Positions 2,411 through 37,795 of a DNA stretch of 57,757 nt are shown here, piece by piece (within the stretch, counting starts at the first letter, position 1; each line of letters starts with the position of its first letter). The notes below the pieces were generated by a model. That model saw nothing but the letters and a program-made list of their open reading frames with translations, was not told the DNA's origin and did not search any database. The stretch comes from Rhizaria sp. SCN 62-66 (lineage: Eukaryota), in NCBI GenBank assembly GCA_001724265.1, contig MEDY01000064.1, forward strand, positions 124,001 to 181,757, in the 5' to 3' direction. The position numbers were made by a program, and so were the translations under genes.

Positions 2411-5400
2411 AAGCCATGATGCCACCTTGCGCAGTGACCGCGCCCCTGTATTCCTCTCGTACGTAGCTGAGTCTGCGTGTGATGGTGTTGCAGTGGCCAC
2501 GTACAACCTGCACTCTGCTCGCCTTGCAGTTGCCGCTGCAGGCACCCGGGTTTCCCGCGCAGTTGCTGTTGTTGCTGCGGTGACGCAGAGCGTTACTAAC
2601 TGGTATCAGGCCAACAGGATGAATACCACGCTCGACAACATGAACTGCGATAAAATCGCTCGCAACTCAACAGACGACAATGACAATTTTAGTGCAAGTG
2701 ATGTGGCGAAAGAAGAGTATGACATGCCTCTTCACTCGAAATCATGGCAAAAGATTATGCTGAACCCGTTAGCGAAGCCACAGCCTTTCCCGTATCTACC
2801 TGTTGCCCCTGCCGCGCCTGCTAGCAATCATGATGCTGAGGATGGACACGTCGAGAATTCAGTTGTATCCGCCGTGCGCGTTGCTGCTTGTGCTGTTTCG
2901 TTCGCGGCTACGCACGTGTCATCGAGCTTTGCTGGCGTCGGGTTCACGAACTCGCGTCTCTTTGCGTGCTTTTCGAGCTACAACACAAGTACCTCTTTAG
3001 CGACGACTGATACAGCCAAAATGGATGATGGCAGCCCTTCGGCACATCTATCAACACAGGAGCCTCTCTCAGCGTCTGCGTCAGGGTCAACGTCGGCACC
3101 AGCGTCGTCGCTTGCAGCTGCGTCGCTCGCGCTGGGCTCTGCCTCGGTCACTGCACTAGCTGGAATGAAGCTGCCTGCACACTTGGAGCTTTTCACCCCG
3201 GGCTTATCTTCCGATGTTGCTGCTGCGTTGACAGCGGTGTGGCTACTATGGCCAAGCGGTTTTAAGCCTTTATTGCGACTTACTCACATTATTGGGCACA
3301 CTCTTAGCGGCTGGGCGCGCGGAGTATCTGATACCGTGATGGCAGCAACGGCTGCTGTTGCTGCGGACGCAGCTGAGTGTGATATTGAGTCGACGCAAGC
3401 GGTCGATAACAGTGCAAGCGCACGTGCCGATGGCGATGGCGGCGCAGAGAATGCGCTGCAGAACGATGTCGACACTGCTCTTCGTCGTGAGCTTGCGATC
3501 ATCTCATCCCTCTCAAGCCAGCTTCCGCGTCCACTTATAGCTCTCATTCCTAAGGTTCTCGCTGCCCTTACCAAGCTTTCGAGCGAGACCAACCACGCAC
3601 AGTTTCCCATGGGTCAGTCCTCGACAGTTGTAGAGCTCTCTCCGTCGCACCCGCAGTCGTTCGGCCCTGATGAGCCTCTGAGGGGCTACTTACGCACGCT
3701 CCATGGCGTTACCAACTTCACACTGAACCTGCTTGACCCATTGATGCGCGGTGCATTTGCCCCAATGGCCGCACCCGCTGCTGCAGCGCTACGGCAGAGG
3801 CTAGAACCCGCAGCGCCGCGCCAGCGCGTCGACGCCGCTGCGCGCGCGGCCCGCCCCGCGTGGCTTGGCGTGCAGCGGCGCGCAGTCACAGCGCTCACAG
3901 CGCACGCCTTGCAGGGCACGCTTGCGCGATGGCGGTGGCACGTTGAGCGGTGGGACGACAGGCGCTGGGGACTTGGTCCTGCGGCGGGACGCGCGCTTAC
4001 ACTTGCTGTTGCTGCGGGCGTAGGAGTGGTCGAGCCATCGCTGCAAGGAAGTCATTCTAGTCTGGATGGCGTGGACCTCTAGCAAGAGGGGCCATGGTTG
4101 TTTGGACTTTGCCACTGGGTCTCAGACTCCTCGGTCGCATCAGTTGGAGCAAGCACAAGTGATACAGTGCAAATGTCTCAGACTGACCTCAGCTCAACCG
4201 CCTCCGTATTGCCGAAGCTGCCAGTTTGCACTGCGATGTCTGCAGTCACATCGGCCACGCGTCACATGCTCGGAAAGCACATGAGAGCACTGCCGCCTCA
4301 CACACACAAAGATGATCAAAGTTATAACAGCGATCAGAATCGTGCGTTTTCGATGTGTTTGCGCTGTGCGCGCGTATCCGCACTTGCCCGGCGTGCAGTG
4401 CTCATGCAGCCTAGCAGTATGCTACAATCCTTTGCAGCTGCTGCGAACGATGCTGCTCCACATTGGGCACAGGCAGCAACATCACTGCTCAATATTGCTG
4501 ACGACAGCGCAGCGACGGATCTCGCGTTTGCACCACCAACCTTGAGTGCTACTGCAGCCGGTGTTGCAGCAAACTTAGCATCCAAAGCGGCAGATAACGC
4601 AGCTACGAGGGCGATTGATGCCGCGACTACATCATATTTCATGTCGAAGTCAATGCACGTGACAGCAGGATCGAACTCGGATCCGAAGAGGGGTAAACAA
4701 TGTGACAACAATCGCGCTTCTGCTTGTGCAAGTGGCGCCAAGACAGCACACGTGTATGCAGCGGCAGCCGCGACGGCACTGGCGCAAGCTCTATCGTCAC
4801 TTCCTGCGACCGACAGTGATGCTGTCACGCGGCCCGTCACACTTTCTGCGTTTGCAGCTGCTATTGCTGCCAGTGTGGATGCGGGTGCTGACTCAGACGC
4901 GGAGACAATGGCCTTGCTTTCTGCTCTTGGGGTCTCTGGTGTGAGCAGTCGTGAGTTCTTTGCCGCCATTCAAGGAGGCGTGATCGCCGAAGGTGGCGAA
5001 AGCAGCAGTGGGGTCGCTGCCGCTAACCGCGGTACTACTAGCAACGCTGACTGTGCCGCCCCGTGGCTGCGCGGACTGCTCACAGTCACAGTAGAGCTGC
5101 ATCGGCTGCTAACCACGGTTGCTGCCAGGGAGCCAGAGTTGAATCTTGCAAGCTCGGGGAAGATGGCTGTCGTCACAGTTCCTTTCCCTGCATCTGTCTT
5201 AAACAAGTCTTCCCCAGAACCCTCGTCGACTTCTCGTCGTGAGCCCAGTGAAGCCTCGCGTACGGCCGCTGCTTCAACGGCTACTGCGTTGACAACTAAC
5301 GGCACTGATGTGGTAGATATTGACTCGAATAAGAATGATACGAGTGTGCTGGACAACGCTGAGTCCGTGGCACATGCTCTTGAATCGACTGCTGCTGAGC

Positions 5401-13600: not shown

Positions 13601-15334
13601 CTCCTCCTCGGTCATGGTCTGCTTCTGGCCGTGACCCAGGCCGCTGCGGGGCCCATCGACGTCGTCGTCGTCGTCATCGTCGTCGAGCTTGGCTTTCTTG
13701 TCTGCGGGGCGCGCCGCAGTGGCAGCGCCGGCGGCGACCTTCTGGCCGCCCGCGGCGTCGCCGGCGCCCGCGCCAGCCGCCTTAGCACCGGCCGCGCCGG
13801 CCCCGGCAGCCCCCTTGCCGCTGGCGCTAGTAGGGATCATGTCCCCGTCGTCGTCCGCGCTCGCGCCGCCGCTACCCGCGCGACCGCCCTTGGCAGCCGC
13901 GGCCGCGGAGGCAACGGGGGTCTTCTTGACGGCGAGCCCGGCCGACGCGAGCAGCGCGCTGTTCTCCGTCTGCTCGCCGTCGTCTTCGTCGCCGCTGACG
14001 TAGCCGCTGCGCTTGCGGCTGACACCCGCGTTGCTCTTGCTGGTCGCGGCCTCGATCGCGGCCGAGTCGACCGACACCGCGAGCGGGGCGCTGGCGCCCG
14101 CGCTGGCGCTCTTGGCCGAGCGCTCGATGCTCGCCAGCGACGACAGCGCCGTCGCCACGCGCGCGCCCGACGACTGCGCCTGCGCCTGCATCTGCATCAG
14201 CCGCTCGCGCGGACTCAGCTCCACGGCCGCGGCGGCGGCGGCCGCGGCGGCAGCGGCGGCGGACGCCGCGTTCGCGGCCGCGGCGGTCGCGGCGGCCTTT
14301 GACGCGGCGGCCGCGTTGGCGACGGCCGCGGCGGCGGCAGACTGATGGATCGACGTGTTGAGCGCCGCAAAGGGATTAGTGCCTGCAGTCAGAGGGTTAC
14401 TCGCGTTCGCGAACGGGTTGGTGGCGCCCGGGGCGAAAGGATTACTCCCCACCGCAAAGGGGTTGGGCGCGACGCCGACACCGACGCCGGCGCCGGCGGC
14501 AAAGGGGTTCGTGGCGCCCATCGCGAAGGGGTTGCTCGCCGAGGGCGCGAAGGGGTTGCCGGCCGCGGGCGCGAACGGGTTGGCTGCAGCGCTGAGGCCC
14601 GCAGCGAAGGGGTTCGGGGACACGCCGGGGGCGCCGGCGGCGCCGGCTGCGAAGGGGTTGGGGGCCGCAGCGAAGGGGTTCACGCCTGGGCGCGCGCCGG
14701 CGGCGGCTGCGGCAGCGGCGGCGGTCGCGGCAGCGGCGGTCGCGGCAGCGAAGGGATTACGTGCGGCTGCCGCGGCGAAGGGGTTCGGCGGCGGCTGTCG
14801 CGCGCCGGTGGCTGCTGCGCCAACAGGGGCACCAGCGGCGGCGGTGGCAAAGGGGTTGTTGCGCGCGCCGAGGCTCGCGAAGGGGTTCACGGGCGGCGGC
14901 GGCGGCGGCGGGGCGCCTGTGCCAGTAGCGCCGGCAGCGGTGGGCGCAGCGGGGGGACGCGAGGCGAAGGGGTTCGGGACCGCGGCGGCCGCAAAGGGGT
15001 TTGGAGGCACAGCGCCTGCTGGGCGAGCCGCAGCGGCCGCGAAGGGGTTCGGCGCGGGCGCGGCAGGTGCGCCCGCGCGACTGGCAGCGGCGGCCGCGGC
15101 GGCGGCGAAGGGGTTCGGGGGCGGCGGGGGCGCACGGGGGCCTGAGGAAGCAAAGCGCGCGCAGCCGCGGGTCAGCACGGGGGCTGCGTGGCGCGCGGCA
15201 GAGCCGATCGCGGTGCTGGTTGCGGAAGCAGCAGACTTTGTGAGTGTAGCAGCGAAGGAAGTCGTTGCGGCGGCGGCGGGGGCGACAAGGCGCACGCGAC
15301 GCCGGGCAGCGCCGACAGTGCCCAGTCCCTGCAT
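10643..15334 (-). CDS. MTIF2: Organellar (probably mitochondrial) translation initiation factor IF-2, ~1521 aa; exons 15334-12218 and 12091-10643
   Basis: G1 GHVDHGKTSLLD, EAGRITQSIG, DTPGHAVFKNMRARGA, NKCD, LKADVHGSLDAL, SLKHFKDEV..GKECGV. The Arg/Ala-rich N-terminus resembles a transit peptide. Splicing joins VVRQ|GSLRVGD. Stop is TAA. Confidence 0.93.
12092..12217 (-). other. Spliceosomal intron (126 nt) in IF2
   Basis: GTACGT...CTAAC...TTTTAG, AT-rich, phase 0, restores the conserved IF2 sequence. Confidence 0.92.
14370..15120 (-). repeat. Array of ~19 NPF(A) peptide repeats in the IF2 N-terminal extension
   Basis: Recurrent GAAGGGGTT on the + strand, equal to AAC CCC TTC (NPF) on the - strand. 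Confidence 0.9.
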
Positions 15335-16035: not shown

Positions 16036-18593
16036 ATGAGCAGTGCCGGCAAGAAGCGCAAGGTCGCCGCCAAGGCCTCTAAGGCGGCCACCAAGAAGCC
16101 CACCCAGACGGATTCCCCTGTCTCTTCCGACGACGAAGCCGACCGTCGCACCCGCGACGAGCACGCCGCTGCGCGCGAGTGGCTGTCCACGCTGGCCCCC
16201 ACCGACGTGCTGTCGAAGGACCTGTTCGACGCCGACCGCATCGCAGCGCTGCGCTCTGAGTTCGCCAACAAGCTCCCGTTCCCGCACTGCACGATCGAGA
16301 ACTTTGTCGACTCGCAGTTTCTTGCCGCGATGCTGGATGAGCTCAAGAACCTCGACTACGCCTCGAAGAACAACGACCTGTACAACTTCTCCCAGTCCGA
16401 GGAGGACCTTAAGTGCGTGACCTTCCCGCTCGTGACCCACTTCCGCGAGCTGCTCTACTCCCCGGCGACCGTGGCGGCGCTGTCGCAGATCTCGGGCATC
16501 CCGCTCTACGGCCTTGACAGTCCGTCGCAGCCGGACTTCTTCGCCGCCGTGTACTCAGACAAGTCCCGCCTCCTGTGCCACGACGACGAGCTCGAGGGCC
16601 GTCGCATCGCCTTCATCGTGTACCTCGCCGAGGAGGGCTGGGCCGACGCCGACGGCGGGCAGCTCGACCTGTTTAACACCGACGCCGCGACGGGTCAGCC
16701 CGCGGACATCGCCGTGTCGTACGTGCCCAAGTGGGGCTCGTTCACATTCTTCGAGGTCTCACCCAAGAGCTACCACCAGGTACGTCGCAAGTCAAATATT
16801 TCTATTTTTATAACGCACTTATCAAACTACATCGTATGATGTTTATATTTCTGCTTCAACGCTATTTTTGCTGATGTAGCTTCCAACTGTCGTACCTTGT
16901 TTCTTGCTTTGCTATCTTGATCGCATGTAGGTGCGTGAGGTTCTGTCCAAGAACAAGCTGCGCGTCTCTATGGGCGGCTGGTTCCACGGTCCCCCCATCA
17001 CTCGCAAGGCGCCCGTTATCGAGCCCGTGGCCGCCGCGTTCCCGCCGGTCCCCGCGCCCGTCGGCGCGGCGGCCGGCGGCGTGCTGCCCGGCTGGGTTAA
17101 CAAGCAGTACACGGCCGCCAAGATCGTGCCCCAGATCAAGGCCGCGTTCAGCGAGGACTCGTCGCTGGAGCTCCACAACTTCATCTCCGACGCTCTTTAC
17201 AAGGAGATTCTCGGTGAGATTGTTGCTCTGGAGAAGACCGCGTTCCCCAATGTCGCCGCCAATGGCACTGCTGCCGACGCCAAGACTCCTGTGCCTGCTG
17301 CTGAGGCTGAGGCTGAAGCTAACAACGACGACGACGACGGGAACGACGACGAAAGCGACGAAGAGGACGAGGAGGACGAGGGTGAGACCCCCGAGTCCGC
17401 CAAAACTGCAACGACCGCCGCCAAGAAGGGCGCCAAGGGCAAGGCCAAGGGCAAGGCCGGGACCAAATCCAAGGGGGCCAAGGCCGGCAAGGCGGGCAAG
17501 GGCGTCAAGGCCAAGGCTGCCGCCGCCAAGAAGGCCTCTGCGACCGCTGGTGCCGGCGCCAGCGAGCCGCTAGAGCCCGCGGTGCTGCCTGCGCTGATGA
17601 CCTACCCGGTCCCCGGTCTGGGCCTGTCGCTCGCCGGACCCGCCAACTTCCGCTGCTTCTATGAGCAAGTGTCGCCCGGCCAGGCGTTCGCGTTCCCGCA
17701 GACGCACCCGGAGGCGGCCGGCGCAGGGCCGCAGCAGGGCGCCGTGTTCAGCGGCCCGTCGGTGACGCCGAAGCTCGACGCGCTCGTCGAGGAGCTTAAG
17801 GGGGAGAAGTTCGCGAAGGTACGTTTTCAATCCGATTTATATTTGAAAAGGTTTTGCAATGCTGCAAATGGTGTGTGGCAATTTCGTGTGTATTGTACAA
17901 CTGTGTGTACATTCCTCATATTTTTTTGGCTTTTTTATGTCTGCACGTTTTAGTTCATCGAGACCGTGACCGGGATGACGGTGAGCTCCGTGACGCCCCC
18001 CTCGCGCCGGCTCTTTCGCCGCGGTTGCTACACCCTGGCCCACGACCACGAGCTTGAGACGCTGGAGGAAGCACTCGACGTCACCGTCACCTTTATGGTG
18101 CCCAAGGCGGCGCTCAAGTGGGATGAGTCCGACGGCGGCTCCATTCACTACCTCCAGGCCGGCGCTGACGAGGAGCTGCTCACCGTCATGCCCGTGCCCA
18201 ACGCTGTCACAATGGTCTACCGGTACGTAAACGACGGCATCGCGAATATTGCTGAATTAGCACGTTCACAACTGACGATGAACCAAGAAAAAGTTAAATG
18301 TTTTTATTCTAATTGTGACTACATTGTCTCACATATCGGTTCTGTGTTTTGTCTTTATTTGTGTGTTTTCTTTCGTCTCTGCGTTGTCCGATGGTGTTGT
18401 CTCGATGCTGTTTAGTGCCGGTGCGAGTACAAACGATGACGGCACTCGCGAAGGCGGCGTGATGCAGTTCACCCGCTATCTTTCGCACACCGCGCCTGGG
18501 TTTGTGTTCCAGGTCAAGATGACCTACCGCGGCCTTGAGGGTGACGACGATGATGACGCTGAGGCAGGAGCGGAGGATGGTGCTGATGAGTGA
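16036..18593 (+). CDS. OGFOD1: Prolyl 3-hydroxylase OGFOD1/Tpa1/Ofd1, ~692 aa; exons 16036-16779, 16931-17818, 17954-18222, 18416-18593
   Basis: PFPH, KNNDLYNFSQS, LLCHDDELEGRRIAFIVYL (HxD), FFEVSPKSYHQVREV, RVSMGGWFH, RLFRRGCYTL. Three GTACGT...TAG introns keep frame. Stop is TGA. Confidence 0.92.
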
Positions 18594-19127: not shown

Positions 19128-21578
19128 TCACAGCAAATCAAAGAAGTAGTCGAGCCCCTGCCCACAATCCCATACGGCCACTCCAGCAGCGTCGGCCTTC
19201 TGTGCAGCCTTGACCCTAGCCGCGACCGAGTGCAGCGACGGGTACCACAGGTACTCACTCTCCCCCGTCAGCGTATACACCGTCGTCGCAGCTGACTTCA
19301 AGTTGCCGGCCTCAGTCCGCGTCCCCGTCTCTGCCTCAGATCCTGCTGTGGTGAACAACGGCCGCTGGTAGTAGTGCTCGCCCGACGTGGCGTGGTACTT
19401 AAACCCTCCGCCAATAAGCCCCGCCATAGCGGCGCGCTCCTTCGCACCCGAGGGCACCTTCTTCAAGTCGCCCGACGCAACAGCATCACCCGTCTTGACT
19501 TCGCCCCTCCCCTTCCCCTTGCTCTTGTTCTTGGCAGCCGCGGCAGCGACCTTGGCGGCCTCAGCCGCAGTGACCACAATGGCGGTGCCAGCCTTAACCG
19601 CGGCCACTGCGGCGGCGTCCTGCTGCAGTGTGGCGACAAGGTCCCTGCCCAACACTGGCTGCGACTGCGCGCCGTGGGTGTATCGCATGCCGTAGAAGTT
19701 GAGGCCGGCAAGGGACTTGCTGCGGACCAGGCCCGTGGCGTCGGCCTCGGAGAGGGCCGTAAGAGACTGGGAAAACCATGACAGCGGCGACGCGGGCCAC
19801 CCGTGCACGCGCAAGCGAGACTAGAGGTGATGGAGAAAATGCCACAAACCAGAAAAAGGGAAATTAGAGTAAGTAAAGGAGATGAGAGTTCAAATTTGAT
19901 TGTGAACATTGTCAAAATATTGTTTTAGTCGCCAAATACTGTACATATGATATCATTTAGCACGAAAAAATAACGATGAATTCAATTGCTACTAGACTCA
20001 AGCCGCACATTGCGTTTGTGTGCATACCTCGACCTGGTCCCTGGGCAGCTGCTGACTCAGCAGTTCCCGCACGTTAGACACCACCATAGGGTCCGTAACG
20101 CCGTCCTTAGGTGCAAAATCGTACGTCATCAGCGAAAACCTGTCGACAACATCGGCCAGCACAGCCGCGTCAACGGCCGCAAACACGGGCGGCGGCGGCT
20201 TCTGGCCGCCGTTGTTCGCGGTCTTCGCGTTCGGGCTCGGGGCAATGTAACGGCGATAGGTGGGGTTATTGGGGGCCGCTGGGGTGAGCTTCTTCGCGTC
20301 GCTCTTGCCCCCCGTGGCGCTGGCGCTCTTAGCGTTCGCTGTCGTGATGGGCGTGGGCGCGGAAGGACGCACGACCAGCACGATCGACTTGGCGTGGCTC
20401 GCCGCGTCGCTGCCACTCTCGCCCTAGCTGCTCAGCGCGTTAGCGCGCGCGATATCCTCGCCGAGCGACTTGACAGAGTCGGCGACCTGGCGCACGAGTA
20501 GGTTGAGCACGTGGCGCGGCGACATCAGGTCCGCCTTGGTGAGGTCCTTCGCGCCCACTGTCAAATCCGCGGTGCTCTGCGCGTACAGACCGGGCGTGTG
20601 CTGGGGGTGATCGGGGTACTCGCCGGCAACGGGCCAAAAGTACGTCCACTCCAGAGTTAAGCCATCGTAGTCGTACTTCATCACCAAGTCGGTCAGCAAC
20701 TGGACGATCTGCGCGCGCACGGCGGGCTCGGAGAAGAGCCGCGTCGACAGCTCGTCGCTGGGCTCGGCCAGCACGCGCGGCAGCACGCGGGGGCGGTGCG
20801 CGGGTCGCGGGAAGTTAGGCCGCGGCTTGCCTTCCGCCCCGGATCCGTCATCAGCGGTTCCCTCGCTCATGCGCTTGATGTTGTTGCCTTCACCAGCGCC
20901 GTCGACGCCAGCTCCCGTGAACGCATTCGCGTTGAACCACGCGACGTACGTGCCGATGTCGCGGCCCGTAATGGCGGAGAGCCAGGTGACGTCGACGTCG
21001 TGCTCGCCGTCGAGGTACGCCTCGACGGTGGCGCCCGTCGCCGCCGCGGCCGAGCCCGAGGGAGCGGGGCGGAACTTAAGGCTGTGCCAAACCGGGGACA
21101 CGGACGGGAACCGGTGGGGCGCCTGCTGCACGAGATCGTACCCGTGGCGGTTCCACGGCGTCACGTAGCACAGGCTCTCCGTTGCGGGCAGCGAGAGACC
21201 CCCGCTCGCAGCCCCTGTGTCGACCGCACTGCTGCTGCTGTTGTTGCTGACAGGCAGGAGAGAGCTGGCCAGCGCGTGGTGCTCGAGCACACTCGCCGCG
21301 GTGGGGGACACGGTCACCAAGCCGCGGGCCTGCACCGGCAGCAAGGGGTCAGCGCTGGCGACCGTGGTTGCAGTCGCAGCGGAGGCCTTGATAGCGCTGG
21401 AGAGAGAAACGATCGCCGTGGGCTGCGAGGCAAGGAACATCGAAGCAACGGCGGCGACAACGAGAGCGATAACGGCGACGATAACGTAGATCGAAGTCTT
21501 TCCACGAGCAGGGGGTAAAGCCGCTGCCTTGGTGGACGCGGGAACAGGACCGCGTGGGGCGGCGGGAGGAGCAGCCAT
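19128..21578 (-). CDS. CHID1: Chitinase domain-containing protein 1 (inactive GH18), ~747 aa; exons 21578-20028 and 19820-19128; internal in-frame TAG at 20426-20424
   Basis: N-terminal TM/signal anchor, then YVTPWNRHGYD, VSPVW and YDGLTLEW before the TAG. FSLMTYDF, GLNFYG, LWYPSLHSVAARV and GVAVWDCGQGLDYFFDLL follow it. Intron 20027-19821 is GTATGC...CTAG. Stop is TGA. Confidence 0.88.
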
Positions 21579-22872: not shown

Positions 22873-24332
22873 ATGGAGCCCCAGCACTTCGAGACAGATG
22901 ACGCTGCCGCTTCTGGCGCCACTGCCGGCCCCAAATTCTCCTGGCTCGCCACGTCCCGGCGCTACCATACCGCTTTTGCCACCGTCGGCGCTTTTCCTCT
23001 GCTCGTTACAATTGTGACAGGCTGTGCGTATCGCTTCCTGCGCGCCGTGCTCAACGTCGACAAAGAGCGCATCGGCTGGCTGCTCGGCCTGCACACTTTC
23101 TCCGTCGCCGGCATCGGCGCCTTCTACCCGCTCCTCGTCGCCTTCCTTGTCTTTGGGCTTGCGCTCTCCTCCGCGCTCCCGCTCCTGCGCCACCTCCATG
23201 CGACGTACAACAAGTTAGGCCGCGCCCCGACCTCTGCGATGGCGCGCGCCACCGCCGCCGCGCCGTGGTCCGCCGCCACTGCGCACCGGGCCCTCGGTTA
23301 CGTCTCGCTGCCGCCGCTGCTGCTCTTCGCTGCCACAGGCGCACTGTACACGATGGAGAAGCACTGGGGCGCTGCGGACAAGGCGTACATGAAGACTATG
23401 ATGCGCTGGCATCAGGTGCGTAAACAACGTCACATCAACTGAACTGATGTATCAGCAGGATACCTGTTTTTTTCCGTAATCCTATGTTTCAATTATATTG
23501 CGGTTTTATGTTATTATTGGTATTTCTTGTTTTAAACGTATCCCTTATATCCTAAACATTGCGTACTCACTTACTCAAACTTGTGTGACCATTGTTATGC
23601 ATTACGATCAACTACACCTGCACCTGCAGCTCTCGTTCGCGATGCCTGCAGTTGTCTGGACCACGCTGTCCGCGATTCCCCTTGCCCTTCTTGTCGGATT
23701 TGGTCTTGTTCTGCTTGCGCGTGTGACTTTTAGCGCAATGCAGGCCCGCGGCATCCACATCGTGTAAGTCAAATTACCTGAAAACCAAATGCCTATCGTC
23801 AATATCTTCTCGTATATGTTGTGTGCAGAAGAACATCGCATTGAAAAAATGTTCTTGGAATGTTTTAATTTTGAGAACTCTGTATACCACGTTGTGCTCA
23901 TGAAAAAACCTCGTACATGTTACTTGTTTCTGGCGCAATTGCTTGCCTCATATGCTACACAGGTTCAACCTGCGCTCCATTGACGACCCCCTCCAGTCGC
24001 GCGTGGGCCCTCCCCCGGCCTCCACTGGTGCCTTCCCCAACCCCGCCAGCGGGGGTCGTGGTGGTCTAACTTCCTCCCCGACCCGCATCGCGCCCAGCTC
24101 GGCCCGCAACGGCGCGGCCGCGGTGGCGCCGACCCCGTCCGCCGTCGCGGGCGCCGCGGGGACCGGTTTCGCGCTGGCGATGAGTCCGCGCGAGGCGGCG
24201 GCCGCGGCGGCACGCGAGGCCCAGATCCGGTACGCGCCGGTGCATCACGCGGCCGCGGGGGCGGACTGCGCGCTTTCGCTCGACGACAACGACGACGACT
24301 CGGCGTAGTACGAGTCGGACACCACAGCGTGA
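22873..24332 (+). CDS. Membrane protein with two PepSY-TM-like repeats; exons 22873-23415, 23630-23763, 23963-24332 (ends at 24308 if TAG is a stop)
   Basis: Duplicated unit RRYH..FPLLVTIVTG.Y..LLGLH / AHRALG..PPLLLFAATG.Y..MMRWH. Introns GTGCGT..GCAG (phase 0) and GTAAGT..ACAG (phase 2) join three ORF-track ORFs in frame. Confidence 0.7.
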
Positions 24333-25759: not shown

Positions 25760-28629
25760 TCACCGCGGTGAGTCAGCAAACACACTGCTCCCCGTCGTCG
25801 AGTCATCGTCGCCAATACCCCGGCCCCCGTGTCCGTGCGCCCCACGGCCGTAGCCGCCGCCAAGAGCGACGCCACTGCCGCCGTTGCTGGAGCCCCTGTT
25901 GCCGCTGCTGTTCGACTTGGCGGCGTCAGCCTCCGCGGCGACGGCGGCCCTCTGCAGCGCCGCGGGCCGCCCCGCCGCCCGCGCGCGCGCGCTGAGGCCG
26001 ACGCCCAGCTGGTCGGCCAGCGCCCGCGCGCGGCGCTCCTCGGCCTCGTCGGCGGCCTCGGCAGCCGTCTGCGCCAATGCGCGCCCGCGGGCGTCGGCCT
26101 CGGCCAGCGCGGCCACACTGTGGTCGAACGCCGAGTGAAAGCCGCCGGCAAGACCGTGGGCTGCGCCGTCGTGATGTTCGTCGCCGTGCGCGTCATCAAA
26201 GTCGTAGTTGTGGAGCACGAGCTCGCCTTCGTAGTGCGGGTCGTATCTAAGCGTCTACATCAAACCGGTAGAATCACTAGCGGCGCTGCACGTTGCCGCA
26301 GCAGTCGTACTGTTGTTCATCTACGGGAACGCAAACACGTTGTTCGAATTGCCCCGGCCCGCCTACAGCGCGCGGCCGTGCGCGCCCGCGCCGCCGCTGC
26401 CGAGGTCGTCGATCTCAGCGTCAGCGTTGGGCGGCGGCGGCAGCGGGTCAAAGCGCGGCGAGCCCAGCGGCGGCGCGGGGCGCGGGGTCGAGGCCGGGGT
26501 ACGCACGCCGCCCGCGCTGAGGTTGCCCGAGCCGGCCGTCGCGACGGCGCTGCCCACCATCGCCGTCGCCGCGGGCGTGTCGTGCGCGGGTGCGGGCAGC
26601 GCGGGGAGGTCGCCCGAGTGCGAGAGCGACAGAGAGTGCGTGTACGCCAGCGTGGGGGACATGGCGCCGGCGCTGTTAGGGCCAGACAGGGGCGGCGACA
26701 GCGGGAGAGAGCCGGAGCCAGACGCAGACGCAGAGGCAGACGCGGATGCCGAGGCCGCGGCGGGCACTGACGACGACACCGACAACGCCAGGGCAGTCGC
26801 GGCCGCGTTGCCGCTTCCGCCGGCGGTCTTAGGGGCGGCGCCCGAGAGCGACTGCTGGGCTGCATAGGCGCTCGCGCCCGCGGTGCTGACGCCATGGGGC
26901 GCCGCGTTTGCAGAGATAGTGCTGTTGTGGGACTGCGAGTGCGAGAGAGCGTTGGCGCCAGACACAAACGACACGCCGCCGCCGCCGGGGTTGCCTCGAC
27001 CGGCGGTGACTTTGCCGTCGCCACCGAGATCGTCGTGGCCGGCCGCACCGGTCTCGGCATCGGCCGCGGGCGGCAGCGCGAGGGCGCGCGTATAAGCGTA
27101 CGCGATGCGGGTGCGGCGCATTACCACGGCCACGATCGTCTGTCAGCGAACAAGAACAAACAGCAAAGAAAAAAAATATGGAAATTCGTAAAAAGTGTCA
27201 GAACGATTGTGATAAAACAAGAAACGAGAACATCTTTCAAAAACTACTCCTTCATCGTAGGATCATGCGTTGAGCAGCGCGCAGTGCGTACCTCGGCGAA
27301 GACTGTGCTGATGACGACTACGGCGAGCAGGCGCACGTGCTGCACCGCCGCGTCCAGCACCTCGGGCGCGGGGTGGTCCGGCGCGAAGTGCTTCGTCACG
27401 TTGTCGATGATCGCCGTCTCGGAGAGGTTCAGCGCGAACGCGGCCGTGAGCGCGCCCGCGATGGCGAGCATGGCGTTGGCGGCGGAGAAGGCTCTGAGCA
27501 CCTCGCTGTGGTTGAGGCAGAGTCCGGTGTAGCCCGTGGCGGCGGAGAGGATCGTCGCAACCGTGAGCGCGAGCGTGGCGACGTGCACGCGCGGGGACGC
27601 GAAGGCCGTTTCGGGCAGCGACGCTGTGGCGAAGACCAGCGCGAGCGCGCAGAAGAGCGTGACAGTGACGAGGACGAGCAGGATCAGCACGCGGCGCCGC
27701 GCCGTCGCGAAGGGCGGCGCGTGCGGTATCGAGTAGTCGTCCTGAATTAACAGAATTTAACACAAATAGAATGTAATATGTAAGCCTTGCGTAGAAAGTG
27801 TAGTTTAAGTTCTTGATACTGGATGAAAAACAGCTCGTTTAGAAAGCAACATATTGTTTTGTCGTTAAAATGAAATGAAACGTACGTCGCTGGCGTCATA
27901 TCCGGCGGCGTTGCGCCGCGACCCGCTTGCGTTGGTGCCGCTCGCGCTCGCGCCATTGCCGCCGCCGTTGCCGCCACTGTGCTGCGCGTCGTACTGGTGC
28001 ATGAGGCGCTGCACGGCGCGCTTGCGGTGCGCGCGTTGCTCCCTGCGCTCGGCCTCGACCTGTTGCCGCGACTGCTGCAGCTCGACCGCGCTCTTGGCCA
28101 GGTTCGCGTCCTGCGTGTACCGCTGCAGCGCCTCCTGCAGCGCGTGTGTGCGCTTCGTGAGCGCGCGCGTCTCGGCGGCACGCGCTCGGTCTAGCGCCGC
28201 CTGCTGCTGCAGCCGCTGCTGCAGCCGGTGGTAGGCCGGGGAAGCCGGGTTCAGCCCCGCCGCGTCGCCGTCGGTGGCCCTCGCCACTGCGCCAGAGGCC
28301 GCGGAGCCGGCGGAGGGACTGACGCTGGCGTTGCTCGTGCTGTGCGAGGCGTCGTCGCCGGCCGCCGCGGCAGAGGCCGTGGCGGCGGCGGCAGCGGCGG
28401 CGGCGGCGGCAAGCGCGGCGGGGTAGGCAGTGGCTTCGTCCGAGTCGGAGGAGTAGGCCCAAACCGAGGTCGGCGTCGGCAGCTTGGCCGCGGCGGCGAT
28501 CAGCGCGGCCTCGGACTTGCTATGCGCCATCAGATGCTGCGCCCGACCGCTTCGCGAGCTTCCAGCGCCGGAGCCTGGGCCTGGGGGCGCGCCACCGCCG
28601 GCAAAGTGGGCCCGGGAAGGGCGCGGCAT
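25760..28629 (-). CDS. Four-TM (tetraspanin-like topology) hypothetical protein, ~857 aa; exons 28629-27886, 27741-27292, 27139-25760; three internal in-frame TAGs
   Basis: Phase-0 introns GTACGT..TCAG and GTACGC..ACAG. Coiled-coil N-terminus and four hydrophobic helices. ORFs 26363..27133 and 25760..26218 share a frame, bridged by TAGs at 26365-63, 26323-21 and 26257-55. Stop is TGA. Confidence 0.68.
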
Positions 28630-30304: not shown

Positions 30305-33300
30305 TTACATATTTCTGTAAGGGCTATTGTTTGCACTCTTGTTCCCGCCCGCAATGCTGCAGTTAGCAATGTTAGTTGTCGTGTTATCGCTATTGCCATT
30401 GCTCGCGTTGATGCTGTGGTCGTTGTTGCCCACGTTGTTTTTGTGGCCGTTGTAATACATGTTGGTGATGGCGTTGATGTGCGTCGTCGTCGCCGTGCTG
30501 TAATGGTGGTGCGTCGTGGCCAGCGACGAATCATACTCAGATCCGAGCCACACGTCCTCCTCCTCGTCGTCGTCGTCGTCGCTGTCGTCGCCGTTGTTGA
30601 CGCTGTCCCCAAAGCTAGGCCCGCGGCCGTCGACGCCAGTGACGCCGTCGCCGTCGCCGTCGCCGTCATTGTCGCCACCACCATCACCGGCGCTCTCAGC
30701 ACGAGTGCGGGAGCGGATCACACCGACGCGAGCGCCAGAGGTGACGGCAGCGCCATTGCCGAAGCCGGCGCCTGAGCTCGTGAAAGCGCGGGAGAAAGCG
30801 CCAGCAGCAGCAGCGGAGCCCGCCTTGGTCGTGATGAAGCCGCTGGGACCAGGACCGGCGCTAGCGGTCGCACTGGCGGCGTCGCCAACTGTGGTGAGAT
30901 ACGCGCTGTTGTTGTAATAGGCGTTGTGATCCAAGCAGTCAACGTTGTTGTCGTTATCGTCGTCGTCGCCGTTGTTATGAACGCCGTCGCCGTCGCCGTC
31001 GCAGTCATCGTCGTTGTTGTCTTCATCACTGTTGCCGCCACCGTCGCTGTCACTATGGTTATCGTCCTTCGCACGCGTGCCGCCGCCCCGGGCCCTGCTG
31101 CTCGCGCCAGCACCAGCCGCCGCAGTGGACGCACCAGCGTTGCCCTGGCCCCGCCTCTCGTCGCCAGCAGCACCAGCATCCGTCATGGGCTTCGCCGACT
31201 GAGCTCCAGCCGCGCTGGCGGCAATCGCGCTGTTTGCGCGGTAACGGCGCGGCGCGGTCGCCATCGATACAGACCGGCTGCTGCGCGCGCGCGTGCGGGC
31301 GGGGACGAAGATCAGAGACGCCGCGGTCACAGGCACCACGGTGGCAGCGGCGTCGGCGGCCGCGTCCTCGGCACCAGCGGCGTGGGCAGGCGTGGCGCCG
31401 GCGCTGGCGGTGGGGCTGAAAGTGATGACTGGCGCCTGAGCAGTGAACGAGTCGGGTCCAAAGCCATGGACGGCGACGGTGACGGGAGCGAACGAGGAAG
31501 CTGAGGCCAAGTTGAAGGCCGAGAGCGGGACAGGAACAGCTGATGCTGATGCTGCCATCGGGAACGGCGCTCCTGCCGCCGCCGCTGCTGCTGCTGCTGA
31601 AGCCGTCGTAGTAGTGAACGCGCTGGGCGAGAGGGACGACGACGGCAGGTACGGCGACGGGGGCGACCGCGGCGACAGCGGGGAGCGCGGCGAGCGCTGC
31701 TGAGTCAGCAAGTCGCAGTTGCACGCGCAGTCGCAAGTGCGCACGCAGTTACAGTCGCGCTCGCAGTCGCAGGCGGTCGCTGAGCGGTCGTTCGGGTCGG
31801 CGTGACGGACGCCACTGTTGCTGTCACCGTAGTGGCTGCGGGTGTGAACGAGGCTGTGCCGGTGTTTGTTGTGGCTGCCCTTGCCGCTATTTGCGTGCGG
31901 CGAAGTGTGGCTGTTCAGGTGGTGATGTGCGTGACTGTGACTATGACTGGGACCGTGGCTGATGTGGCTGTGGCTGCAGCCGTCATGAACACTCATGTTG
32001 TCCGCCTCACAATCACCGTCTGCAGTGATGTTGCCACCGTTGCCGTCGTTGCCGTCGTTGTCGTCGCTCATAACGCGCTGGCGCGCAGTCATCGGAGTAT
32101 GACCAAGGGCATCACCGTCAGCATCAGTCTCCGCAGCAGCAGCAGCACCACCACCAGCAACAGACTTGCTACTGCTGGTGTTGTAGTACACGAACTGGTC
32201 GCAGTCGCTGCTCGCGCGGGCGCGCGACGCCACCGGTCGCGGCCGCTTCATACTGTTGGTGTTGATGTTGTTCGCATGAGTCGCGCTCGAGCTCGCGTTC
32301 GCGGCGACATTGGGACTCGCGGTAGAACCAACGGTGCTCGCCTCCACGTCAGCTGACTGTCCGTTGGCAGTAACAGTAACGGTGGGCAGGGCGGTGGCGT
32401 GAACGTCGCTCACGGCCGGAGGAGGCGTCTCGCCAGTGAGTGCGAGCGGAGTGTCGGCGACTGTGGGCGCAGGCAAAGGAGAAACCATGGGCGGAGTGAC
32501 CGTGAGCCGAAGCGTACAGCCGTTTACGTCGCTTTGCTCGTCCTCCTGCTGCGGCTCGGCCGCTGGAGTCGAAGTGGCTGTTGCAGGATGCGTGTATTGG
32601 CGCATAATGGCGCCCATGCTCCCCATCGTCGCCGACGCCGCTGTCGCCAGCGAGCGCAGCGCAGTGACAAACGTCTGCGGAATCGTTGCCGCTGTGAAAC
32701 CGCCGCTGCCGTCGACGTCACCATCGAAGTGACGCTGCTGCTGATGAGAGATCTCACTGTGGCCCTGGTCGTAGCTGTGGTCGTGCGCGGCGTGGCCGTG
32801 ACCGTGGGCAATGTGGCTGTGGGCAATGTGGCTGCGGGCCTCCGCGTCCGTATCGTCAGTCATCACGACCTGGTCGCCCGCGTCGCAGTCCCCGCCGACA
32901 GCGTCGGCATCAGCATCGGCATCAGCGTCGGCATCAGCATCGGCATCAGCGACTCCGCACTCGGTGGCAGCGTAGCCGTCGCTGTCGTCGCCGTCGTTAC
33001 TGTTGTTGTTCAAGGCGTTGACACTGAAGTCGCTGCTGTCGCAGTAGCAGTCGTCGGCAGCGCGGGGCGTCATGGCCTCTGCGGCGCCTTGCTGTGCGAG
33101 CATTTGCTGCTGAAGCTGAAGCTGCAGCTGCAGCTGCAACTGCTGTTCCTGCTCTGCGGCAAACATCTGGGCATGCGCCAGTGTCTGGAGCTGTGTTTGC
33201 GCATCTGACTGTGGCTGCGAACTCAGCTGCAACTGCGCAAGCTGTTGCTGCTGCTCTTGAATCTGGCGGTGTTGCTGCTGTGCCTGGAGCAAAAGCAACA

Positions 33301-35523
33301 ACTGGTGCTGCTGTTGGAGTTGGTGTGCGCTCGGTTGTTGGTCGTGTTGCTGCTGCTCATGTTGTTGTTGCTGCAACGAAAGCGCAATCGACGACAAAAG
33401 CGACGGGAATCCAAGGTTAACATCACGATTGACCCCACTGGGACTGCTAGTGTTCCTGTTGTTAGCGTCCGTGTCCGAGGGGCTGTTCGTGCAATTGATG
33501 TTCCCGTGACTGTTACTGTTTTGTGACAAACTGAAGTGCGACGGCTGCGGGTGGCCGTGAGCAGTGCCAGCATTCGCACCATCAGTTGCATCAGCGTAGC
33601 GCTCGCTCAGCTCCGTGTGACTGTGGGACGCTGCGGAATGACTGTGAGCAGAGGTGAAGTGACTGTGCGCAGCCGAGTTTGTCATGTGACTGTGAGCAGG
33701 AGAGGTCGAGGCGCACATGGACGGCGACATCACCTCTTGCCCGTTGCTGTTATTATTGTTGTTGTTGTTGTTGTTGTTGTTGTCATCATAGTTGTTGTTA
33801 CCATGCTCAGCATCGTGACTATGATTGCGGTGACTGTGTGCCTCGGCGTCGTGACTGCGGTGCGCGCTACGGGAGTGACTGTGGGCGCTGTTGACGCTAC
33901 GCTGGCCATGGCGCGTGTGACCGTGGTTGCGGTGGCTATGGGGACGACGGTCGCGGGGATCACCAGCAACGACAACGCGCTCGTCTCCGTCGCCATGACT
34001 GTGCCTGTGCCTGTGGCCGTGGCTGTTGTTGGTCGAGCTTGTAGTCACGGGAATGAGCGGAGGAGACGGGAAGTCCAGCGTCTCAAGTGTGAACTCACAT
34101 GGCAAGGCGCCAAAGTGCACTGTGTCTCCAGGGCGCAGCTCTGAGAAAGGTCAGTGAAACGAAGCAAATCAACAAAGTTTGGAGGATGAGCGAGGAGCCA
34201 AAGGGGGGGGAAATATGGTCTTGAGCTAAGTGGATTAATAGTCACGATATATGCATGTCTTAAAAAATAAAACAAAATAATGATATACATGACTGAGTTT
34301 TTTCTACAATATTGTGACTAGAGTTTAAAACATTTTGCATAAACCACAAATATTCAAGTTCCTGAGAAACCGGATCTTAAACCCAGTTTCCAGAAGGAAA
34401 AAACCTTCTTTCATGGAAGTTTAGGCGTACCATAATAGGTCATGGGCTCAATCCGGACCCTGTTGATATACGTCCCGTGTTGCGACACAAGATCAAAGAG
34501 AAACACGCGCTCCTTTCCGGGCAAACTGGCCGCGAGCGCGGGCGTCTCGTCCAGCTGCGCGGAGCTGTCACCGCTCGCCTCGGTCTGGTCAGTGTCGGGG
34601 TCTGCGCCTGGCTGATCTCTCTTGCGGCCCGCCTTGCTCTGCTCGCTCTCCCCGTCACCGTCCTCCTACGCACCCCGCGTGGTAGCGCCGGGAGCGCCGC
34701 CACGCGCGTGTGGGCCTCTGTTATCCCCGCCGGAGCCGGAGTTATTGCCGAGGCTTGTCAGACTGGCCTGGCTAGTATTGCGCCGAATGCCCGACACGGC
34801 GTCTCCGGCGCTCACCGTCACCGCGACGGGCGCCTCCGCGTCCGGCCCACTCTCCTGCAGCTGCGGCGGCAGTGTTTGCGCCAGCGCGGTGAAGTGCGGC
34901 GAGGACGGGGACGCGAATTGGATGATGGCGTGCTGGCGTGACAGCGAGGGGTGCGAGAACGTGAGCACGCTCGACGGCAGCCGGCCGATTGTGAGTGTGG
35001 CGAGGCCAAAGGACGTCAAATCAAGCGGCGGAAAAGGTGCGCCGTTGAGAAACGTCGAGAGGTAGAACGGGGTGCGCGGCGGAGCGCCCCAGTCAGGCGG
35101 GACGTAGGTCTTAAGCGAGCCGCCGCCTGGGTTTCCAGTAGCAGTCCCGACGCTGGGGCCGAAGGGTGGCGGTACGGCGGAGTTTGCTGTGTCTGCAGAG
35201 CTCGTTGTAACGTGCATTTGACGCTGTGTGGAAGTATCGGAAGCAGTGGCGCCGGTGTGGGCAGAAAATGGCGGGGAGTGGCGGCCGGTGAAGGGCGAGA
35301 AGAAGGGCCCGGAATTGGTCGGGGAACGGCGTAAGGAGAGAGACGAAGCCGGGAGAAACGAGATGGGACGGCGAACCAGGGGTGAAGCTGGAATGATAAC
35401 AACGCCCTGGTGTTTTCGTGGAGATGATCCAATGACAGTCGTTGCTGGAATCTTCCTAGGACTTGGTGCGGGTGGTGGGGGCATCGAAGTTCGCCCTGTT
35501 GGGGGCGTCGTGGAGGGCCTCAT
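30305..35523 (-). CDS. FHA-domain protein with a very long low-complexity C-terminus, ~1642 aa; exons 35523-34431 and 34140-30305; internal in-frame TAG at 34668-34666
   Basis: YVPPDWG..TIGRLP..HPSLSRQHAIIQF lies before the TAG. VFLFDLVSQHGTYINRVRIEPMTYY|ELRPGDTVHFG lies after it, across phase-1 intron 34430-34141 (GTACGC..CTGAC..CTCAG). Stop is TAA. Confidence 0.85.
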
Positions 35524-35941
35524 AACCCTCCGGTACTAAAAACACAGATATGGCACATATAGCGGGGCATAGAATGAGCGATCAATTTGACATAATCGAG
35601 GTGATCTGAAATAGAACCGTCGCTAAATGAATGCAATGAAGATGGACGGAAGTAAACGTGACTAAATCTGATGTGTATTCAGCACCCCATCCCCAACGCT
35701 CACGTCGGGCTTGGGGGTGGGGGGGCGAGAGAGGAGGCATGAGCTCGGTCAACGGGCGAACAGTACGGAGGAGAAAGAATCTCTGACCTACTGCACTCCA
35801 ACGCCGCCACCTCGCTCCTTCTCCCCACTCTCTCATTATCTCAAAAAACAACAACAACACAACCACCATCAACGAGTTGTCTCATTTTCCCTTCCTTTCC
35901 CTCTCCATGTTTGACCGTAGCTGGAACACTGGGTGAGTGAC

Positions 35942-37171
35942 TTACCAGCGGCGGACGAACTTGAAGGCGGTGTTGCCGGCCTCCTTGGGAACGAGGCCCG
36001 CGCGGACGTAAGGGCCAACGGTGGGGAGGTGGGCGGCGACGGCGAGGAGGACCTCGCCCGACTTGTCGCCAGTGAGCTGCTTGAGCGCGACGAGACCGTT
36101 CTTCTTGACGGCGGCATCGACGGGGGCCTGGCCGAACTTCTTGTACAGCACCTCGCGGAGCTTGAGGACGAAGTTGTTCATGGCGTTCTTCTTGAGCCCG
36201 GCGAGGTCCTTGTTGAGGGCCTTCATCGCCTTGGCCTTGAGCTGGTCAACGCGGTCCATCTGGCCGTCGGTGATGTAGGCGTTGGCGAGCTCGTGGAGCT
36301 CCTTGGCGCGCTCGGCGGTCGACGCAACGTAGGACTTCTTGAGCTGGGCGACGCGGGCGTGCTCGGCGGCCTCAAAGTCGATGACCTGGGAGGAGGTCGC
36401 CTTGAGAGCCTTGAGGGTGTTCTTCTTGAAGTTCCACTTCTTGACCTGCTTCATGAGCTTGCGGGCCTGCTTAGCGAGCTTCTTGACCTCAATGAAGTCA
36501 CCCTCAGCGACGGCCTTCTTGCCGTTGCGCTCAGCGCGGACAACCTCGTTCATGAGGATCTTGCCCTGGTCCTTAACCTGCTTGTGGAGCTTCTTGATGA
36601 TCTTCGCACCACGAGCGAGGACGGCGTCCGTCTTCTCGGGGGTGGGGATCGCGTGGTCGGCATAGACGAACGTGTAGGGGTCGTCGTTCTCGTAGTCCTT
36701 GTCGGGCAGAGCGGGCTCCTTGGCCTCGACGGGGGACTTGCCGGATGCCTTGCCAACCTTGAGGTCGGCGTCGGTCAGGAGAGCCGGGATGGCCGCGGAG
36801 GCACCCTTGGAGTCGGTCTTCTTGGCGTCAGCCTTCTTGGCAGCAGGCTTCTTGGCAATGACCTTCTTGGGAGCAGCAGCAGCCTTGGGGTCCTCGATGA
36901 ACGAGTGCTGGTTGAGGGCAGAGTTCATGCGCTCGTCGGTGTTGGCGAGCTCAGACTCGAGGTGGGACCAGAACTCATCCTTAGACATGGTCTGGAGAGC
37001 GCTGAACTCGGCCGCAGAGAAGTCCTGACTGGTCATGACATCCTCAGCAGAGAGGCCCAAGGTCGAGGCCTCGGCGGCAGCACGAGCGAAAAGCTCGGCC
37101 GTCGAAAACACTTGAGCGGCGTGCGCGAGGCACACGCACGCAAGTGCACACAAGACGACGGAAAAACGCAT
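35942..37171 (-). CDS. Secreted Lys/Ala-rich helical hypothetical protein (~409 aa), probably highly expressed
   Basis: Signal peptide MRFSVVLCALACVCLAHA and strongly biased codons (AAG, GCC, CTC). Ends TGG TAA. Confidence 0.8.
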   Translation of the reverse strand: MRFSVVLCALACVCLAHAAQVFSTAELFARAAAEASTLGLSAEDVMTSQDFSAAEFSALQTMSKDEFWSHLESELANTDERMNSALNQHSFIEDPKAAAAPKKVIAKKPAAKKADAKKTDSKGASAAIPALLTDADLKVGKASGKSPVEAKEPALPDKDYENDDPYTFVYADHAIPTPEKTDAVLARGAKIIKKLHKQVKDQGKILMNEVVRAERNGKKAVAEGDFIEVKKLAKQARKLMKQVKKWNFKKNTLKALKATSSQVIDFEAAEHARVAQLKKSYVASTAERAKELHELANAYITDGQMDRVDQLKAKAMKALNKDLAGLKKNAMNNFVLKLREVLYKKFGQAPVDAAVKKNGLVALKQLTGDKSGEVLLAVAAHLPTVGPYVRAGLVPKEAGNTAFKFVRRW

Positions 37172-37795
37172 TCGTCTACACCACGGAGCGAATAGGGAAA
37201 GCAGGAAGGGCGAAAACAAGAGCAGCCCAAAGGGGGGTGGGAGAGAGAGGAGTGAGAAGGAGACTTTGAAGAGGCCCCAGATGCAGCCACCAGCGCACCC
37301 AGTGCGACGGGGACATAAATTTATATCATCATATAGATGTCAACAACCTGCTGCTAAAATGACAAATCCACACAGGGACGCCTATGCCTCCAAATCACCC
37401 CGTTTTGCCCCCGCCCAGCCCCAAAAATTGGTCCCTGTCCCCCCTTACCCCCCAGTAAGTTAGGTCGCATCAGCCGAGTGACCGTGGGCAGAGACCAGCC
37501 GATCACCAGACCGAGACCGACCGACCCGCCCGTTCGACCACAGAGAGATTGGAAAGAGCGACTAGAGCCGTGACGGAATAAGGTCTGTAACGGCATGTAT
37601 CTTCCGATAATTGTGTTTATGTTCTACGTATAGTAATTTTGTGCATCAAATTACCTATTTTTTAATTTCAAAGAGCGATAAAGCTCGTCTCCCCTCCATA
37701 CTGACCACCTCTTTTTTCCTCCCACAACCCTATGCATCTATCCCTTCCATTCCTCGCCTGCTTCCTGGATGACCGCTTAATAGCCAACACTCTCG

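Follow-up and report, generated by a model that had tools for sequence, protein, structure and literature searches.

The DNA analyzed here, called the window throughout, is a 57,757-nt stretch of contig MEDY01000064.1 (positions 124,001 to 181,757; assembly GCA_001724265.1, Rhizaria sp. SCN 62-66), and on its minus strand lies a gene for an FHA domain protein that is interrupted by one in-frame TAG. Because termination at the TAG would leave half a domain and orphan everything downstream, none of the introns that could remove the TAG is credible, the flanks of the TAG resemble coding sequence, and other genes of the window are alike, the ribosome most likely passes this TAG in frame. The chances that UAG is decoded as an amino acid in this organism were judged to be about even.

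Exon 1 of the FHA gene (34431..35217, minus strand, as is the whole gene) was counted from the ATG at 35217; another in-frame ATG is found upstream at 35523, where the open reading frame (ORF) in the databases, P0002, starts. The N-terminal half of the FHA domain is encoded at 34900..35115 (YVPPDW .. TIGR .. HPSLSRQHAIIQF). It is followed by an inserted loop of about 129 codons (34513..34899), which is of low complexity, coding-like in the gene frame, and predicted with low confidence. The TAG is situated in this loop (34668..34666) and is codon 184 from ATG 35217, in the context GGT GCG TAG GAG GAC. Further FHA strands follow past the TAG at 34432..34512 (ERVFLFDLVSQHGTYINRVRIEPMTYY). Exon 1 is joined to exon 2 (34140..30308; stop-to-stop frame of 1281 codons) by a canonical AT-rich intron (34141..34430, GTACGC..CTCAG, 290 nt, GC content 0.36, phase 1), which splits a GAG codon after its G. 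The split codon (E) is completed by the start of exon 2 (34079..34140), in which the last FHA strands (LRPGDTVHFGALPCEFTLET) are also encoded. The remainder of exon 2 (30305..34078, including the TAA stop at 30307..30305) forms a low-complexity tail, and Pfam matched no family to the 1,277-codon tail of the gene. An earlier, preliminary description, which was made from the sequence alone, had placed an in-frame TAG within an FHA domain and a canonical intron in front of an exon of about 1280 codons, and both were borne out.

The continuity of the FHA domain across the TAG was analyzed with two profiles. The Pfam search that the preliminary description had suggested matched the read-through translation to the FHA family (PF00498) in two stretches with 39.3 bits, compared with a cut-off of 20.7 (E 9e-10). 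To build a profile of our own, 103 sequences were taken from the 149 homologues listed, as the others lacked either the S-[RK]-x-H-A anchor or enough flanking sequence. Before the TAG, positions 75-144 of this profile were matched with 66 bits, and after the TAG, positions 146-172 were matched with 31.1 bits. In exon 2, the first 20 residues matched positions 174-193 with low scores (1.1 bits for the sequence and 0.8 bits for the stretch), which nevertheless exceeded those of all 499 scored shuffles (maximum -0.5). The profile positions thus run on across both the TAG and the intron, which supports the earlier claim that, if translation stopped at the TAG, only half of the FHA domain would be made and the second exon would be orphaned. 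The claim that the two halves flank the TAG stood in that they are in the same frame and occupy consecutive profile positions; however, they are separated by the whole loop of about 129 codons, and not by the TAG alone.

In an alignment of 77 rows, residues G78, S93, R94, and H96, which precede the TAG, and D242 and G248, which follow it, were invariant, and R79, L243, S245, H247, T249, and N252 were nearly invariant. An AlphaFold2 model was generated from this alignment for exon 1 only, and thus the last FHA strands, encoded by exon 2, are outside the model. The predicted local distance difference test (pLDDT) value exceeded 90 in two segments (residues 41-110 and about 235-262) and was below 55 for residues 121-230, which include the TAG codon 184. 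The best match of this model to a solved structure, found with Foldseek, was the FHA domain of human kanadaptin (4h87_A; E 1.5e-5, probability 1.00, 225 columns). Both halves align to 4h87_A, and therefore both form the beta-sandwich in the predicted structure. Next among the solved matches came two spliceosome chains (7dvq_X and 8i0p_X), followed by Arabidopsis DDL and yeast Pml1.

An exhaustive search of 1.84 billion representative sequences yielded 229 proteins at E values up to 0.001, namely the ORF of the window itself and 228 distant FHA proteins. Apart from its own ORF, the best relative among the matches listed was 43% identical over the FHA domain. A word-index protein search returned only the window's own ORF, and scans of genome contigs and of viral contigs for relatives gave no match. 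Nearly all of the homologues listed were matched in two stretches, one on either side of the loop. The protein shares with the kanadaptin (SLC4A1AP)/SNIP1/DDL/Pml1 group of FHA proteins the Y-x-x-P-x-W lead-in and the motifs G-R, S-R-x-H-A, and D-L-x-S-x-H-G-T. In contrast to the loop of about 129 codons found here, the homologues have only about 7-12 residues at this site. The C-terminal motif W-x-P-P..Q-x-G-D-G-x-T-x-L-N, which is typical of the long kanadaptin-like homologues and is present in 14 of the 149 homologues listed, is absent from the exon 2 protein, and therefore we call the protein a kanadaptin-type FHA protein and not a kanadaptin orthologue.

The loop around the TAG has a GC content of 0.70-0.73, and on either side of the TAG the gene frame was the best of the three frames. 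The preference for the gene frame amounted to 0.67 bit per codon upstream and 0.98 bit per codon downstream of the TAG, whereas the real intron showed none. The preliminary description of this region as GC-rich, codon-like, and unlike the introns was thus confirmed. GC content at third codon positions (GC3) alone did not distinguish the sense frame from one antisense frame, and a six-frame likelihood test with a margin turned out to be too strict, as zero sites passed. In a later frame test with flanks of 30 codons, the FHA TAG fell below the margin of 0.3 on its upstream side (0.16), but with flanks of 40-80 codons it passed (0.52-0.76). The whole gene frame contains one TAG and zero frameshifts over 1,539 codons. 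Frameshifts had been named in advance as a sign of a pseudogene, and neither these nor several kinds of stop codons nor a loss of codon bias were found in the FHA gene; past the TAG, the gene frame is preferred as it is in real exons. Taken together, these features are best explained by an intact FHA gene in which the hairpin between the SRxHA and DLxSxHGT strands holds a disordered insertion of about 129 codons with one UAG.

The FHA gene is not the only gene of the window that contains an in-frame TAG. Five firm cases were found in three genes, and one additional case is doubtful. The second TAG (20424..20426, minus strand) is codon 391 of a CHID1-like (GH18-like) gene and has conserved parts on both sides in one frame. 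The solved structure of human CHID1 (3bxw) aligns to residues 63-209 and 476-497 of the protein, which flank this codon. The gene frame was preferred in both flanks of the TAG, by 1.27 and 0.92 bit per codon. A relative of this protein (P0155, 42% identical, 407 residues) is uninterrupted, and the CHID1-like ORF that ends at the TAG is present on 5 contigs. A third gene (25763-27139, minus strand) contains three in-frame TAGs within 37 codons of its last exon (26365-26363, 26323-26321, and 26257-26255). The stretches between these TAGs are coding-like, with the gene frame preferred; a search with this exon matched no relatives. In the doubtful case, gene A, a TAG at 4080..4082 (plus strand) joins open frames of 1359 and 2052 codons. 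In the resulting frame of 3412 codons, the coding signal becomes weak over about 600 nt (3780-4380), where a minus-strand frame scores equally, and the frame may represent two genes or contain an unrecognized element.

Additional candidates were dismissed. The TAG at 12094 in the gene for an organellar IF-2 is ordinary, as it coincides with an intron acceptor, and the four TAGs at 16814-18436 in a 2OG-oxygenase gene are likewise ordinary, being located in AT-rich introns or coinciding with intron acceptors. A TGA candidate at 4180 (minus strand) is located in an ambiguous stretch. The segment from a GT to the TAG measures exactly 63 nt in gene A as well as in the CHID1-like gene; this coincidence was put down to chance because the CHID1-like stretch aligns with a helix of the relative.

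In the 11 gene frames of the window, which comprise 13,512 codons, 6 TAGs were counted (0.04%); TAA and TGA are absent from these frames by construction. Reading through TAG joins long frames in several places, whereas reading through TAA or TGA only extends frames into untranslated ends, and on the sense strands there is no pair of long frames with just one TAA or TGA between them. The ends of the 11 genes, a small sample, comprise six TAA, four TGA, and one TAG. The latter (24306, plus strand) is reached by a gene with membrane-like exons (22873-24305) and is followed by seven GC3-rich codons and then by a TGA (to 24332). A donor-like GTACGA site overlaps this TAG, which either is the sole case of termination at TAG in the window or has to be added to the read-through TAGs.

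For the FHA domain to form, the ribosome would have to pass the UAG in frame. In-frame passage of UAG is also the simplest explanation for all of the loci together. It would most likely be accounted for by an organism that decodes UAG as an amino acid and ends its genes with UAA and UGA, for which a tRNA with the anticodon CUA, a weakened recognition of UAG by eRF1, or both would be needed. We infer both the translation of the UAG and its means. The third gene is informative in this respect, because hardly any product would be made by inefficient readthrough of its three UAGs within 37 codons. This argues for efficient decoding, i.e. a reassigned or suppressed codon, rather than for leaky termination.

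Several observations weigh against this interpretation. The one gene mentioned above may truly end at a TAG. The conserved, strongly biased genes contain no TAG in 3,742 codons, where TAG is about as rare as ATA, TTA, and AGA. None of the six TAGs is at a position that can be aligned with homologues, and therefore the amino acid for UAG cannot be named; the relative P0155 lacks the 21-residue stretch that contains the CHID1-like TAG. An avoidance of conserved positions or of biased genes by TAG is not supported at these numbers (rough p values of about 0.3 and 0.14, respectively). Under the codon usage of the window, roughly four fifths of random nonsense mutations are estimated to give TAG, and thus the exclusive occurrence of TAG is weak evidence when taken alone. 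No tRNA gene was found in the window, and an Rfam scan of the window matched no family. Lastly, the TAGs of two genes could be removed by in-frame introns. According to our own reading of the sequence, a 120-nt GTAGGC..CTTAG segment (26366..26247) could remove all three TAGs of the third gene, and a 63-nt GTAGGA..TCTAG candidate ends at the TAG 4080 of gene A.

The nine certain introns of the window served as the reference for splicing. They start at 12217, 16780, 17819, 18223, 20027, 27291, 27885, 34430, and 48797, are 126-290 nt long, have GC contents of 0.31-0.39, and all end with YAG. The donors are GTACGT (five introns), GTACGC (two), GTATGC (one), and GTACAT (one). The 5' splice sites are thus unusually uniform, and the acceptor is TAG in five of the nine introns. 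The literature searched for this donor motif pointed to no particular lineage. Donor and acceptor matrices were trained on these introns and are rough due to the small training set. The FHA TAG could be removed by 91 in-frame GT..AG pairs, none of which scored near the real introns. Among them, the highest donor score was 3.5 and the highest acceptor score was -0.7, compared with at least 10.3 and 14.6 for the real sites; when the real sites were scored with one left out, their values were lower, down to 5.6 (donor) and -0.1 (acceptor). The most conventional-looking candidate (34815..34666, GTGAGC..GTAG, 150 nt) has a GC content of 0.70, and its gene-frame margin of +0.73 bit per codon equals the median of 140 exon windows. 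Loss of the TAG from the cDNA through an unrecognized intron had been named beforehand as a finding that would speak against readthrough, and no credible intron of this kind emerged among these candidates.

The sequencing data were compared as contigs from four runs of uncertain RNA origin. No joint was observed in them at 34430/34141 or around the TAG. In the polyA library X3, a contig lies on the intron (34262-34442), showing that this library contains unspliced RNA or DNA. A contig from run X1 terminates exactly at the exon end 34431, and the depth of this run is zero in two bins (33828-34395), within which exon 2 begins and most of the intron is located. These observations hint only weakly at spliced RNA. 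The contigs from these runs count neither for nor against the translation of the TAG.

Three alternatives to a translated UAG were considered, and an error of sequencing or assembly was judged to be very improbable. Nothing specific favors it beyond the default worry that applies to any metagenome contig, and it is contradicted by identical letters in separate assemblies, some of which may share a sample with the window. A JGI metagenome contig (L001, 2359 nt), the sole match of a metagenome scan, is 100% identical to 34371-36729, including the TAG. A short-read contig from run X5 that covers the TAG has zero differences over 34378-34936, and 6 contigs recorded in JGI/IMG, Logan, and ENA carry P0002, the ORF that ends at the FHA TAG. 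It also appears unlikely that the UAG is gone before the ribosome reaches it, either by splicing of an unconventional GC-rich in-frame intron, such as 34815..34666, or by RNA editing, for example from UAG to UGG. An in-frame intron inside a coding sequence is known as an exitron. Three of the four loci do offer in-frame GT..AG candidates, i.e. the 150-nt segment in the FHA gene, the 120-nt segment in the third gene, and the 63-nt segment in gene A, and the short loops of the homologues would agree with the removal of such a segment in the FHA gene. Moreover, in some filamentous fungi genes with a premature UAG are rescued by adenosine-to-inosine (A-to-I) editing of the mRNA. However, the splice scores of the candidates are far below those of the nine real introns, their GC contents of 0.56-0.70 contrast with 0.31-0.39 in the real introns, and the segments are exon-like in their frame preference, with margins of +0.56 to +0.84, the latter value being that of the 120-nt candidate. 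At the CHID1-like TAG, the preceding 45 nt contain no GT at all, and the only in-frame candidate would delete the helix that is aligned with the relative. Neither a joint nor a changed letter was observed at the TAG in the contigs of any run, although their RNA origin is uncertain. As an in-frame intron within a coding sequence would also look coding, these results only weaken the splicing explanation.

The remaining alternative assumes the standard code, under which the TAG is a true premature stop, that is, a recent nonsense allele in a gene that is dying or is sustained by basal readthrough and that is tolerated by the organism or the population. It would fit with the rarity of the TAGs and their restriction to non-conserved, low-complexity stretches, with the dominance of G-ending codons, due to which chance nonsense codons would mostly be TAG by our estimate, with the one gene that seems to end at a TAG, and with the lack of a tRNA(CUA) in the window. 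It is nevertheless rather improbable, because at least three of the 11 genes in 57 kb are hit, yet no frameshift is found over 1,539, 516, and 932 codons, and the codon bias does not weaken past the TAGs. In addition, leaky readthrough of the three clustered TAGs would yield hardly any product, no context or structure favoring readthrough was found (z -0.9 to 0.2), and the contigs compared show no alternative allele at the TAG. A possible, although doubtful, variant of UAG translation is that the codon is at an early or ambiguous stage of the transition from stop to sense, in which it would be avoided as a terminator and decoded well enough to be carried, while remaining rare and confined to unconstrained loops. 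If this were true, the organism would represent a natural "ambiguous intermediate" outside the ciliates.

The window as a whole consists of GC-rich open frames with AT-rich spacers over 57.7 kb, and GC3 is about 0.9 in the conserved genes. Pfam matched families that are typical of eukaryotes, namely an organellar IF-2, a GH63 glucosidase, a HOOK-domain protein, and a 2OG-Fe(II) oxygenase, the last with an Ofd1-type match at its C-terminus that is below the cut-off. The public runs that contain the stretch are wastewater and activated-sludge libraries. The organism behind the window is an uncultured, GC-rich, intron-bearing eukaryote of wastewater or activated sludge. No report of this organism was encountered in the literature, although no search was aimed at one. 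The N-terminal part of the IF-2 gene (about 13900-15300, minus strand) encodes many NPF tripeptides in an alanine-rich sequence that precedes the GTPase domain, an unusual extension for an IF-2 of the organellar type. Upstream of the FHA gene, many sites in 36365-36533 and 36983-37145 differ between the window and the contigs of runs X5 and X3. These differences are spaced by multiples of three and fall on third codon positions of a minus-strand gene (35945-37339), which indicates a related strain, species, or paralogue in the same samples. Run X1 has a single 1.5-kb contig over this gene (35670-37137), with about fivefold the depth of the X1 contigs of the FHA gene. Its end at 35670 is loose and adaptor-like, and a well-expressed transcript may be its source.

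The results have a practical consequence for annotation. Gene callers that use the standard code split these genes, and both the FHA gene and the CHID1-like gene are stored as ORFs that end at the TAG, so that proteins of this organism are truncated in public catalogues. Changes of the nuclear code that affect only UAG have been described for a handful of lineages, in all of which the codon is already common, and the early steps have not been seen. If a UAG as rare as the one described here is truly decoded, a lineage outside the ciliates would be added, and the start of a reassignment might become visible.

Programmed stop-codon readthrough, which occurs in viral as well as cellular genes, is signaled by the context of the stop codon or by downstream structures. 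The FHA gene resembles such cases in that a single in-frame UAG is followed by coding sequence that continues in frame. In contrast, this UAG interrupts a domain midway instead of preceding an optional C-terminal extension. The six TAG sites have no common context, as the +4 bases are G, G, G, A, A, and C, and no unusually stable downstream structure was found at the four TAG stretches that were folded (z -0.83, 0.03, 0.19, and -0.88, compared with -0.14, 1.21, and -0.34 for three control stretches). The differing contexts and the lack of stable structures argue against classical programmed readthrough. Therefore, the term "readthrough" in the preliminary description holds insofar as the ribosome most likely passes the TAG, but it is unsupported in its strict sense. 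The edited genes of filamentous fungi are similar because they are otherwise intact and interrupted only by UAG. They differ from the present case, in which far more genes are affected (about one gene in four) and the introns are long and AT-rich with GTACGY donors. Ciliate genomes also differ from the window, which is GC-rich and has introns of 126-290 nt.

Among nuclear codes, a change of UAG alone from stop to sense has been described for the rhizarian exLh (Leu) and for Iotanema spirale (Gln) (PMC5304391), and for three uncultivated phyllopharyngean ciliates (Leu) as well as Hartmannula and Trochilia (Gln) (PMC11687900). The latter source also cites Protocruzia tuzeti (Gln) and Scotinosphaera (Ser) as examples, and Amoeboaphelidium as a case in which both UAA and UAG are reassigned (PMC11687900). 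For exLh, 384 UAGs in 71 genes are reported, and the bona fide stop codons counted there are 56 UAA, 15 UGA, and zero UAG (PMC5304391). The ciliates with this code are described as having hundreds of UAGs, and suppressor tRNAs are reported from two genomes (PMC11687900). According to these accounts, UAG is common in such lineages and marks conserved Leu or Gln residues, and UAA is the main stop codon (PMC5304391, PMC11687900). Unlike these lineages, the window contains only 6 UAGs in 13,512 codons and none at a conserved site, a difference that also speaks against a reassigned UAG. The likeness to the codes in which only UAG is sense is that UAG is the only stop codon that interrupts the frames of the window, while the genes end at six TAA, four TGA, and a single, doubtful TAG.

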